From assembly GCA_045110715.1 (NCBI GenBank), contig JBGCGI010000078.1, positions 369 to 64,368 on the forward strand: 64,000 nucleotides of DNA, given 5' to 3'. Source of the DNA: Rubripirellula sp. Its GTDB lineage: Bacteria; Planctomycetota; Planctomycetia; Pirellulales; Pirellulaceae. Below, piece after piece: positions 58,167 to 64,000 of the stretch (its first letter is position 1; every line of letters starts with the position of its first letter). Both the position numbers and the translations under genes were made by a program. The notes beneath the pieces are model-generated. The model was not told where the DNA came from, made no database searches, and was given only the letters and a program-made list of their open reading frames with translations.

Positions 58167-58295
58167 AAAACTGCCTCTTGTACAAGCGGAAAGGATTCTT
58201 GACTTGACACTGTTTAACTTTACGGCAGTTTCGTACAGTTAGGCAAATAGAAATTGACGGTCCAATGCATTGATAAAGGCTATGTGTGCTTTCCT

Positions 58296-59204
58296 ATGGT
58301 TGATTGGCTGAATTATCACCACCTGATGTACTTCTGGATGGTCGCAAAAGAAGGTGGGATCACTGCCGCCGCAGAGGTGTTGCATCTGTCCCAACCGACG
58401 CTCAGCACGCAAGTTCAGAAGTTAGAAAAGTCATTGGGGATGAAGTTGTTTGAGCGTAAAGGACGCACAATGCATCTGACCGATAGTGGCCAGATGGTGT
58501 TTCGTTACGCAGACGAGATCTTTAACCTCGGCAATGAACTCGCTGACGCGGTTCGCGGGCGACCGGCAGATGATTCGCTACGGCTACTCGTTGGGGTGCC
58601 GGATGTGCTTCCCAAGTTGGTGACCTATCGGATTCTGAAGCCAGTGCTCGCCATGCAGGAACGCGTCAAGCTGATTTGCTACGAAGGAAAGCTGAAAGAC
58701 CTGCTGGCGGACCTTGCGATGCATCGTCTTGACGTTGTGCTGGCAGATTCCCCGCTGACACCGGAGTTGAACGTCCGTGCGTTCAATCACTTGCTTGGGC
58801 AATGTGATGTCACGGTTTTCGGAACCGCGGCGATGGCAAAGAAGTATACGAAGGGGTTCCCGTTGTCTCTGGACGGGGCACCGATGTTGTTGCCTACTCA
58901 GAATACGACTCTCCGGCGAGCGTTGGAGCAATGGTTTGACGACCAGGGTATTCAGCCGGACACCGTCCATGAATTTGAAGACAGCGCTGTCTTAAAAGTC
59001 TTTGGCCAGGCTGGCGAGGGGATGATTGTCGTACCGACGGCGGTAGCAGTCGACGTGGCTACGCAGTATTCGCTCGATCCTATCGGCCGCATCCCGAGCA
59101 TCATCGAAAAGTTCTACGCCATATCGGTAGAACGTCGGTTGAAGCATCCCGCCGTTGTCGCCATTTCCGAATCGGCCCGAACGAATCTGTTCGGCGAGCC
59201 GTAA
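58296..59204 (+). CDS. nhaR: LysR-family transcriptional activator NhaR-like
   Basis: WLNYHHLMYFWMVAKEG, LADLAMHRLDVVLAD, FNHLLG, EFEDSAVLKVFGQAG, YAISVERRLKHPAV. Divergent from the HPF gene. Confidence 0.9.
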   Translation: MVDWLNYHHLMYFWMVAKEGGITAAAEVLHLSQPTLSTQVQKLEKSLGMKLFERKGRTMHLTDSGQMVFRYADEIFNLGNELADAVRGRPADDSLRLLVGVPDVLPKLVTYRILKPVLAMQERVKLICYEGKLKDLLADLAMHRLDVVLADSPLTPELNVRAFNHLLGQCDVTVFGTAAMAKKYTKGFPLSLDGAPMLLPTQNTTLRRALEQWFDDQGIQPDTVHEFEDSAVLKVFGQAGEGMIVVPTAVAVDVATQYSLDPIGRIPSIIEKFYAISVERRLKHPAVVAISESARTNLFGEP

Positions 59205-62166: not shown

Positions 62167-62535
62167 ATGAAAAGTAAGCGAGAAATAGAGCGAGAAATTA
62201 GCCAAGCCGTTATTCGCTTTGAGAAGGAGTTCATGGGAAGAGGTCCGCTCGAAACGAAGTCTTACATCATCGAGGACATGGTCTTGGTGCGGCTCACCAA
62301 TGTTCTTACTCCAGCGGAAATGAAGCTCGCTGAGTCGGAGGATGCACAACGCGGGAAGTATTTGATCAAGCAAGTGCGGCAAGAATTGATCGAAAAAGGA
62401 AGGCCGCTTTTGGACGCCGTGATCAAGGAGATCCTTGACGTGGACGTCGTTAGTTTGCACACGGACATCAGTGCAAAAACTGGTGAGCGCGTGATCGTAT
62501 TTACTTTGGAGCGGAAGCCGAATTTTCAGGAATGA
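62167..62535 (+). CDS. DUF2294 / MpsC family protein
   Basis: ISQAVIRFEKEFMGRGP, LTPAE, VVSLHTDISAKTGERVIVFTL. Confidence 0.9.
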   Translation: MKSKREIEREISQAVIRFEKEFMGRGPLETKSYIIEDMVLVRLTNVLTPAEMKLAESEDAQRGKYLIKQVRQELIEKGRPLLDAVIKEILDVDVVSLHTDISAKTGERVIVFTLERKPNFQE

Positions 62536-62697
62536 CGAAAAGGCAAAAGAAAATTTCTCTCTTGGCTTGACCAAGACTAATGCCCTGCCTAAACTCCGAC
62601 CGATGAAGGTTTTGGCTGTTGCTGGAGTTCGCTCGCGAATCGTCAGGCAGTCAGAGAACAAAGTTTTTGTTGCACAGAATGAAACGTTTGTGCAAAG

Positions 62698-62739
62698 AAG
62701 GCTGGACGGTTGCACTTTGCACCCGTCCAGCCTTTTTTT
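62698..62739 (+). terminator. Intrinsic terminator 1 in the mpsC-dabB interval
   Basis: AGGCTGGACGG (62699-709) pairs with CCGTCCAGCCT (62723-733), followed by T7. Confidence 0.85.
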
Positions 62740-62884
62740 GTGCCTTGATCGAACATTAATAGACAACTGCTGAGGCGATGCCTGAGCCAAAGTAGCGCGA
62801 TTCCGAACAGATAGTCGGGATTGACTCGAACGACAAACAAATGACCGATTGCTAACGCCTCGATGGTTCAAAAGCCATCAGGAC

Positions 62885-62929
62885 AAGCCGGATGTGAAGC
62901 GCGATGTGTGCTTTCATCCGGCTTTTTTT
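62885..62929 (+). terminator. Intrinsic terminator 2, about 40 nt upstream of the dabB-like start codon
   Basis: AAGCCGGATG (62885-894) pairs with CATCCGGCTT (62915-924), followed by a T run to 62929. Confidence 0.85.
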
Positions 62930-62970
62930 ATACCCAACCTGCCCGATCTACTGCTCGGAGTTTTGATCAG

Positions 62971-64000
62971 ATGGAATTGTTCGCCGTAACACTATCGATG
63001 CCAATCCTGTGCCTCATCGCCTTGGTGTGTGTGCCGTCTCGATGGGCGAATGGGCATCAAGGAACATTGCGCCGAGCCGTGACTGTTGCGGTCGGACTTT
63101 TGTTCCTTCAGGCTCTGGCATTTGCCGTGATGTATGCAGTCAGCGGAGGTGGTGCTCGGGCCATCTCGCTATTGCAGTGGCCGGGTGAGTCGAGCATCGC
63201 GTTCGGAATCTACTATGACGGTGCAACGAGCTTGATGCTCACGCTGGTTAGTTTCGTTGGCTTTGTAGTGAGCCGGTTTTCCGTCCGTTACCTCGATGGG
63301 GAGGCGACTCAGGGGCGATATTTCAAGTGGTTGTCGTTCGCCATTGGTGTGGTCTCGCTGATGGTCGTGGCTGGAAACTTGCTGCTGTTCTTTGTTGCCT
63401 GGGTGATGACCAGCTTTGGTCTTCATCACTTGCTATTGCACTATCGGCATCGACCAGCCGCCCATCGAGCGGCTTGGACGAAGTTCGCGATCAGCCGTCT
63501 TGGCGACGCGTTCCTGATCTCCGCGATTGTTCTGACATACAAAACGTTTGGTACGCTTGACCTGTCGGAGTTGTTTGCACAAGCCGAACTGCTCGCAGTA
63601 ACCTCGGGAGCCACCGCAAGGCACGCAGCGATCGCCTGGTTGCTGATGCTGGGTGCGGTAACCAAATCTGCTCAATTTCCGTTTCACACTTGGCTACCTG
63701 ACTCGATGGAGACGCCGACGCCGGTGTCGGCGCTAATGCACGCTGGCATCGTCAACGCGGGAGGTTATCTCGTGATTCGGATGAGTCCGCTGGTTGGACT
63801 GGGCCCCAATGCTCTGGTGGCTCTGGCAGTGATTGGAGCCGTGACGGCTTGCTACGCGGGTGTTGTGATGATGACGCAATCGAGTGTGAAGCGAAGTTTA
63901 GCGTATTCGACGATTGCACAGATGGGCTTCATGATGCTGCAGTGCGGACTTGGAGCATTTTCTGCTGCGATGCTGCATCTTCTCGCCCATTCGCTGTACA
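62971..64000 (+). CDS. NuoL/ND5-like proton-conducting membrane subunit, DabB/MpsA type (runs off the right edge)
   Basis: Not in the ORF track because it is truncated. Hand translation from ATG 62971 (GGAG at 62957-60) gives RFSVRYLDGE, KFAISRLGD, TKSAQFPFHTWLPDSMETPTPVSALMHAGIVNAGG, LAYSTIAQMGFM..QCGLG...HLLAHSLY. The DabB/MpsA assignment rests on the adjacent DUF2294 gene. Confidence 0.88.
   Translation, partial: MELFAVTLSMPILCLIALVCVPSRWANGHQGTLRRAVTVAVGLLFLQALAFAVMYAVSGGGARAISLLQWPGESSIAFGIYYDGATSLMLTLVSFVGFVVSRFSVRYLDGEATQGRYFKWLSFAIGVVSLMVVAGNLLLFFVAWVMTSFGLHHLLLHYRHRPAAHRAAWTKFAISRLGDAFLISAIVLTYKTFGTLDLSELFAQAELLAVTSGATARHAAIAWLLMLGAVTKSAQFPFHTWLPDSMETPTPVSALMHAGIVNAGGYLVIRMSPLVGLGPNALVALAVIGAVTACYAGVVMMTQSSVKRSLAYSTIAQMGFMMLQCGLGAFSAAMLHLLAHSLY

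Follow-up and report, generated by a model that had tools for sequence, protein, structure and literature searches.

The stretch between mpsC and dabB in this planctomycete genome is, in all likelihood, a regulated cis-acting attenuator, and the leader RNA encoded there, together with the gene cassette to which it belongs, probably forms a switch, not described so far, that turns inorganic-carbon genes on or off. The window analysed is the whole 64-kb stretch of DNA at positions 369–64368 of contig C78, from a 7.1-Mb genome in 402 contigs. A gap of 435 nt separates the mpsC stop codon (62535) from the dabB ATG (62971), and the 440-nt mpsC–dabB stretch yielded a folding z-score of −6.4 against shuffled sequences. 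It is organized as follows:

62167–62535, forward strand: mpsC (DUF2294/PF10057; Pfam MpsC, E = 9.9e-37)
62567–62595, forward strand: sigma70-like promoter of the leader (consensus scan and conserved position in relatives)
62602–62739, forward strand: unit 1 leader RNA of about 138 nt, made up of a 5′ CCGAUGA motif, P1, linker, P2 and T1
62614–62652, forward strand: P1, a three-tier hairpin (covariation)
62662–62668, forward strand: conserved U-rich linker, AGUUUUU here and GGUUUU in relatives
62670–62695, forward strand: P2 hairpin (UUGCACAGA...UUUGUGCAA), directly abutting T1 (fold −9.8 kcal/mol)
62698–62739, forward strand: terminator T1 (stem 62698–62732, U7 62733–62739; ΔG −31.8 kcal/mol)
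about 62798–62823, forward strand: hairpin A (GAUUCCGAAC...GUCGGGAUU) in the spacer (ΔG −10.8 kcal/mol)
62851–62929, forward strand: unit 2, made up of the GCUAACGCC motif, hairpin B (62862–62879), GGACAAGCCGG and T2
62885–62929, forward strand: terminator T2 (stem 62885–62922, U7 62923–62929; ΔG −26.2 kcal/mol)
62957–62973, forward strand: ribosome-binding site GGAG and ATG of dabB (sequence reading)
62971–64000, forward strand, continuing past the window end: dabB, NuoL-like, 528 aa (Pfam Proton_antipo_M/N)

The mpsC reading frame was listed from 62128, with the likely start at ATG 62167 giving a protein of 122 aa, the form also held in the protein collection, while the dabB ATG aligns with the start codons of relatives. 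Beyond the window, dabB is followed by dabA (PF10070, E = 7.6e-260) and, directly 3′ of it, by a CA-like gene of 203 aa (C78 67573–68184, L167 3205–3816; Pro_CA, E = 8e-9). A NuoL-like DabB and a PF10070 DabA are encoded together, as in DAB/MpsAB pumps, and the operon gated by the leader probably comprises dabB, dabA and the CA-like gene. In three genomes of the same genus (G085, G405 and G462, 97–99% complete) neither an mpsC orthologue nor the leader was found, suggesting that cassette and pump are an accessory locus of patchy distribution. A LysR-family regulator is encoded at 58254–59204 on the forward strand, ~3 kb before mpsC; in Aeoliella sp. SH292 a LysR gene immediately precedes mpsC (L105 1959–2882), and in G041 (L055) an NhaR-like LysR gene comes after the cassette.

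The two strong terminators that the initial annotation had placed between mpsC and dabB were confirmed, each combining a stable GC-rich hairpin with an immediately following U-tract as intrinsic terminators do, and both stems covary in relatives. A strict scan, requiring a hairpin of −18 kcal/mol or lower that ends at most 2 nt from at least 6 T, returned T1 and T2 as the only matches on either strand of the window and 102 matches in the 7.1-Mb genome, among which T1/T2 are the sole same-strand pair within 400 nt. T1 and T2 are exceptional in strength and rarity. Both were missed by a consensus terminator scan with an 8-nt loop limit, their loops being longer. Strong canonical intrinsic terminators are generally rare in this genome (G000), at 14 per Mb over both strands.

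Transcription of the leader appears to start from a promoter of its own rather than from mpsC. Its −35 box TTGACC (62567–62572) and −10 box TAAACT (62590–62595) are separated by a 17-nt spacer and predict a start near 62602; promoters were assigned from consensus alone, and in nearly all related loci TTGAC-N17(±1)-TAnnnT recurs at a fixed distance from the leader RNA. This overturns the view of the leader as a simple mpsC–dabB spacer. It also displaces the CTGCCT/AGGCAG and AACTCC/GGAGTT stems proposed for unit 1, which use 62585–62598, overlap the −10 box, lie upstream of the predicted start and are not conserved; AGGCAG belongs instead to the covarying P1 stem. The −35 box is overlapped by an inverted repeat, CTTGA-N7-TCAAG (T-N11-A type, 62566–62583), and the same palindrome over the −35 box was observed in many loci (L012, L013, L010, L014, L015, L110); a LysR-type regulator, or another DNA-binding protein, might use it as an operator.

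Comparison with relatives, which are a sampled set of genomes related to one another, separated conserved from variable parts of the region. A three-way alignment displayed the CTTGAC...TAnnnT pair after mpsC, a conserved block up to T1, a variable spacer and a second conserved block up to T2, and by BLASTN within the family the spacer is 72% identical in another genus. P1 is built of an outer GGCUG/CAGUC, a middle CUGG/UCAG and a distal UUCGC/GCGAA tier with conserved internal loops. In an 18-sequence alignment, 96.1% of the cells of P1 and P2 are paired and 15 of 20 pairs are changed on both sides, with double changes in five of the eight P2 pairs; none of 500 shuffles reached this level of covariation, and slid controls were 29–45% paired. 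RNAalifold on the whole of unit 1 found compensatory changes in 25 of 40 pairs. The structural conservation upstream of dabB homologs that had been put forward as a test thus holds in relatives for unit 1 and, as given below, for unit 2. Leader-peptide attenuation was considered and rejected: the ATG within CCGATGA becomes GATAAC, GACAAC or AATACC in relatives, and no conserved short ORF with a ribosome-binding site was found in the leader across the related loci.

Unit 2 is smaller. Its compensatory changes amount to 13 of 26 pairs, and hairpin A in the spacer before it is kept in ~10 of the 14 loci that bear unit 2. In the overall anatomy the motif opening unit 2 reads GCUNANGCC and is followed by hairpin B and T2. 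Among the unit 2 stems proposed earlier, GATGG/CCATC corresponds to hairpin B and covaries and TTCCGA/TCGGGA corresponds to hairpin A and is conserved, whereas GAGGCG/CGCCTC is not conserved in the nearest relative. Of the repeats said to be shared by the two units, GACCGAT is explained in part by motifs that are conserved, CCGAU at the 5′ terminus of unit 1 and ACCRA ahead of unit 2; AACAAA is not conserved. A genome search with a covariance model of unit 2 (R2) gave strong matches at these loci only. R2 also scores the P2 and T1 portion of unit 1 at 33–36 bits, so unit 2 may be a partial tandem duplicate of unit 1. The GGACAAGCCGG preceding T2 was dismissed as a special motif, the same letters starting generic terminators in these genomes.

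The distance between terminators and start codons indicates how the downstream genes must be reached. T2 ends 41 nt before the dabB ATG, in line with the ~40 nt noted before, and no conserved promoter follows T1 or T2 in any related locus compared. In the Aureliella-like loci L039/L044 and in L042, which are without unit 2, the U-tract of T1 ends 25–40 nt before the dabB start, an interval that includes the ribosome-binding site, and in most loci with other target genes the terminator likewise stands directly before the start codon. Downstream genes would thus be transcribed only through a terminator, which makes the element a cis-acting attenuator and bears out the initial annotation in its proposal of a regulatory leader whose terminators dabB transcription must pass.

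This geometry weighs on the simplest alternative, namely that both are ordinary gene-end terminators, T1 ending mpsC, T2 acting as a back-up or insulator, and dabB having an unrecognised promoter, for example of ECF type. mpsC does lack any other terminator, and planctomycete promoters are poorly known, such that a non-sigma70 promoter could be missed; but mpsC and T1 have a conserved promoter between them, the intervening RNA covaries, the 25 nt in L039 is too short for a promoter plus a ribosome-binding site, and the cassette recurs before different genes. We therefore consider this explanation highly improbable.

A further alternative takes the ~138-nt RNA ending at T1 as a trans-acting sRNA, perhaps with a second species ending at T2, in which case dabBA expression would be constitutive leak-through and promoter activity would be what is really controlled, by a transcription factor such as the LysR/NhaR-like protein encoded nearby or by MpsC bound to the CTTGA-N7-TCAAG palindrome. 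The combination of a promoter, three hairpins, a single-stranded U-rich part and a strong terminator does have the layout of an Hfq-type sRNA, the terminators look constitutive, and the recurrence of the −35 palindrome as well as the LysR genes, at 58254–59204 here and next to mpsC in Aeoliella, would suit control at initiation. Left unexplained are the terminators standing 25–55 nt before the start codons of functionally related genes in many lineages, and also the conserved alternative pairings over both terminator bases described below; moreover, a three-gene operon with no other promoter would hardly be expressed at all behind two near-perfect terminators. On balance we regard the sRNA explanation as doubtful.

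Alternative folds that compete with the terminators were found in both units. A column-wise search for conserved complementarity revealed that the linker GGUUUU can pair with the basal AAGGCC of the T1 5′ arm and so enclose P2 (the candidate antiterminator AT1; here 62662–62667 with 62698–62703, overlapping 6 nt of T1). Across 18 sequences 92.6% of the AT1 cells are paired, with one clear compensatory event: an A-U pair unique to this window takes the place of the G-C found elsewhere, and the T1 partner has changed to match, so that the covariation of AT1 rests essentially on one lineage. In 13 of the 18 sequences, the structure of lowest energy predicted for the nascent transcript includes AT1. 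The helix comprises only 6 bp, two of them G-U, versus a terminator of about −32 kcal/mol. In unit 2, an alternative hairpin (62876–62894, CGUCCGG/CCGGGUG) can form between the T2 5′ arm and the hairpin B 3′ arm together with CGG, to the exclusion of both hairpin B and T2; it is 89.8% paired versus 27–41% in slid controls and displays no covariation. By sequence, the overlapping pairings have the classic 1:2, 2:3 and 3:4 layout of an attenuator. Because both alternative folds are weak relative to the terminators, termination should be the default and read-through should need a stabilising factor. Two other pairings were rejected: a helix between the 5′ segment and the linker, as an anti-antiterminator or aptamer closing, did no better than shuffles (mean z −0.23), and for GTGCAAAG pairing with the T1 apex the relatives share only a 4-bp invariant core, with the lower terminator stem unblocked on inspection.

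A covariance model of unit 1 (R1) gave one strong match per genome in 10 of 151 family genomes, and a search of the order added six genomes in four other families, again with one match each. An IUPAC pattern scan of all GTDB species retrieved 12 loci, all from Pirellulaceae or Planctomycetales and including Stieleria bergensis and an Aureliella MAG; the same scan of metagenomes yielded only two additional loci, and look-ups starting from MpsC contributed Posidoniimonas polymericola, Aeoliella sp. SH292 and a further locus. No known family accounts for the leader: Rfam 15, with its Na+, Li+, fluoride and Mn2+ riboswitches and RAT, had no match in the 64-kb window at gathering threshold, a permissive scan of the region gave at best 14–22 bits against thresholds of 44–180, all driven by the terminator hairpin, and seven related short-class leader loci had no match either, which agrees with the initial annotation in recognising no known riboswitch class. 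The literature search turned up no paper on this element, none on a riboswitch for bicarbonate or CO2, and none on a regulatory RNA preceding DAB genes.

The most consistent neighbour of the leader is mpsC. Wherever the sequence upstream of a strong R1 match is assembled, an mpsC orthologue immediately precedes the match, that is for nine of 10 in the family, the six order matches and 12 of 14 pattern-scan loci, the three uninformative loci being near a contig end (G056, whose contig ends before the gene, and two pattern-scan loci). Leader copy number is one per genome, and in the family the genomes with an MpsC orthologue of at least 70% identity are exactly those carrying the RNA, while MpsC paralogues of ~45% identity are without the cassette; in G072 a second mpsC paralogue has its own leader and terminator (L141). 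The MpsC clade was found in 25 of 401 genomes in the order search and in 25 of 401 in the phylum search, and most of its loci have a promoter-like box and a strong terminator ~120–260 nt after the mpsC stop. The genes behind the cassette, assigned by Pfam, are as follows:

dabB–dabA: most loci, including L142, from another family and with both units
CA-like gene and SbtA: G240
purE–purK–SbtA: G162
beta-CA and SulP/STAS: G168
beta-CA and bestrophin: G033
beta-CA alone: L130, L133
divergent CA-like genes: L126, L128, L132, L135, L144, L146
SbtA: L149
PEPCK (GTP): L136, L138, L158, L159, L161
PEPCK_ATP-like: L157
DUF4914: L140, L160
argG: L152
Usp: L141, L155

Nearly all of these targets move, interconvert or consume CO2 or bicarbonate, and SbtA stands behind the cassette in three lineages. 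To judge from the compared loci, mpsC, the promoter and a terminated leader appear to be the constant part, with the target genes swapped. The leader sequence itself falls into several classes by lineage, while MpsC remains 55–85% identical.

Several recurrent features of these loci were observed in addition. A compact second leader class consists of (A)GGCAGAU-N4-AGGGGG, a hairpin, CCUGCU, GGAAGAUA and then a terminator; its members (L152, L154, L156, L159, L161, L149/L150, L147, L137) lie downstream of mpsC orthologues, precede PEPCK, argG, SbtA or a second DUF2294 gene, and have no Rfam match. A divergent beta-CA-like family, in which CTDP...ICGH replaces CSDSR...HxxC, is a recurrent first gene after the cassette (L126, L128, L132, L135, L116 3733–4416, L115 785–1363, L144), the genes for these putative enzymes sometimes being followed by one for SbtA or a SulP transporter. 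Uncharacterised P-loop proteins with a PEPCK-like GxxGxGKSE motif are repeated targets as well, namely DUF4914 (L140, L160) and a 400-aa protein (L129, L134) for which Pfam returned no match; their recurrence as targets hints at a reaction dependent on CO2/bicarbonate.

Leader structure and regulon-like targets together raise the possibility of a free-standing riboswitch, in which P1–linker–P2 would be an aptamer for a carbon-status ligand, either bicarbonate or a metabolite such as AIR that accumulates when carboxylations stall, the ligand would choose between AT1 and T1, and MpsC would be a co-regulated or unrelated neighbour. P1 and P2 are a conserved, covarying structured RNA, as expected of a riboswitch, whose internal loops and single-stranded linker are conserved too; a terminator overlapped by a potential alternative helix is what a classic expression platform looks like; the target genes share a theme; tandem arrangements occur among riboswitches; and with no Rfam family matching, the element would be a new class. 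But the element was never seen without mpsC directly upstream and so is not independent of a neighbour gene; this strict linkage, and its occurrence once per genome while other carbon genes of the same genomes are without it, speak against a riboswitch standing on its own. Further against it, the terminators greatly exceed those of typical riboswitches in strength, the aptamer-closing helix between 5′ segment and linker is unsupported (mean z −0.23 as above), unit 2 is too small for an aptamer, and leader classes differ between lineages. We hold the riboswitch explanation to be rather unlikely, if less so than an sRNA.

We instead favour a cis-acting attenuator whose read-through is controlled by a trans-acting factor, and the identification of that factor as MpsC, acting as an RNA-binding antiterminator, is one we would accept about as readily as we would doubt it. 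MpsC had been named a natural candidate before, and the comparison gives this strong support, since all assessable RNA matches lie directly behind an mpsC orthologue. As an antiterminator it is our leading guess, based on gene order, the one-to-one pairing with the leader and the analogy with GlcT–ptsG, LicT–bglPH and HutP–hut. The protein itself was less telling. Pfam assigns PF10057 only, with no RNA-binding domain, no HutP and no CAT/PRD; neither sequence nor profile searches of the PDB retrieved a solved homologue; and a Foldseek search of the PDB with the AlphaFold model (pLDDT 89) reached a best TM of 0.39, with no similarity to any RNA-binding fold. Its pI is ~6, hence not basic. In S. 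aureus the mpsC gene is located 3′ of mpsAB, and it was considered to be unconnected with transport and to lack synteny elsewhere; MpsAB transports without MpsC, and 5% CO2 represses mpsA (PMC6689103). Both the dispensability of MpsC and the repression by CO2 are compatible with a regulatory role. The variation of leader sequence by lineage, with MpsC conserved, is awkward for a protein–RNA interface, and MpsC could alternatively be a DNA-binding or metabolic protein that merely shares the locus.

According to the mechanism we propose, the dedicated sigma70-type promoter just after mpsC would start the leader RNA, and RNA polymerase would have to pass T1 and T2 to reach dabB, dabA and the CA-like gene. 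Termination would prevail by default. Read-through would occur when a trans-acting factor stabilises the fold that holds the base of the terminator 5′ arm, at T1 through P2 extended by pairing of the linker (A/G)GUUUU with AAGGC(U/C), and at T2 through the CGUCCGG/CCGGGUG hairpin. The factor would most likely be MpsC/DUF2294, an RNA-binding antiterminator that reports inorganic-carbon status. We infer conditional termination, binding of the RNA by MpsC and CO2/bicarbonate supply as the signal.

CO2/bicarbonate sensing in non-photosynthetic bacteria is largely unknown, and MpsC (DUF2294) is widespread with no assigned function. If the proposal is true, MpsC and its leader gate uptake and carboxylation genes, namely DAB, SbtA, SulP, carbonic anhydrases, PurEK and PEPCK. 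We lean slightly towards a novel sensor here, either MpsC as founder of a new class of RNA-binding antiterminators that senses CO2/bicarbonate with the leader, or the RNA as the first inorganic-carbon riboswitch. The locus gives a testable hypothesis, that carbon pumps, bicarbonate transporters, carbonic anhydrases and carboxylating enzymes are under the control of a portable cassette of mpsC, promoter and terminated leader. It also contributes structured RNA families not yet in Rfam, and it points to DUF4914 and the divergent CA-like family as belonging to an inorganic-carbon regulon.

Among known systems, the GlcT–ptsG and LicT–bglPH systems (BglG/SacY family) of Bacillus subtilis work by RAT–terminator antitermination. 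They share with this locus the order of regulator gene, promoter, leader hairpin overlapping the terminator 5′ base and target operon, with termination as the default, and, as in BglG-type leaders, the candidate antiterminator hairpin, here P2 lengthened by AT1, shares 6 nt with the T1 5′ arm. They differ in that MpsC carries PF10057 only and neither CAT nor PRD domains, that no RAT match was found with Rfam, and that tandem terminators and inorganic-carbon targets take the place of sugar PTS targets here. In the B. subtilis hut operon, the small soluble protein HutP is encoded just upstream of a terminator that gates metabolic genes, and mpsC likewise is a small protein gene immediately upstream of a terminator gating downstream metabolic genes; hut, by contrast, has no promoter between hutP and the terminator, MpsC is outside the HutP family with no PDB fold match, and the UAG-repeat pattern was not noticed in our leader. 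Ion riboswitches (fluoride crcB, Na+ DUF1646 and Li+ nhaA-I, including tandem ones) resemble the leader as structured, terminated RNAs before transporters of ions or inorganic solutes, with an alternative helix, here a candidate one, overlapping the terminator, whereas our element has no Rfam 15 match, is tied to one protein gene and occurs in one copy per genome. Closest in gene content is S. aureus mpsABC/DabBA, where DabB (NuoL-like), DabA (PF10070) and an MpsC gene also occupy the same locus; the difference is that here mpsC lies upstream and is separated from the pump by the promoter, the leader and the terminators.
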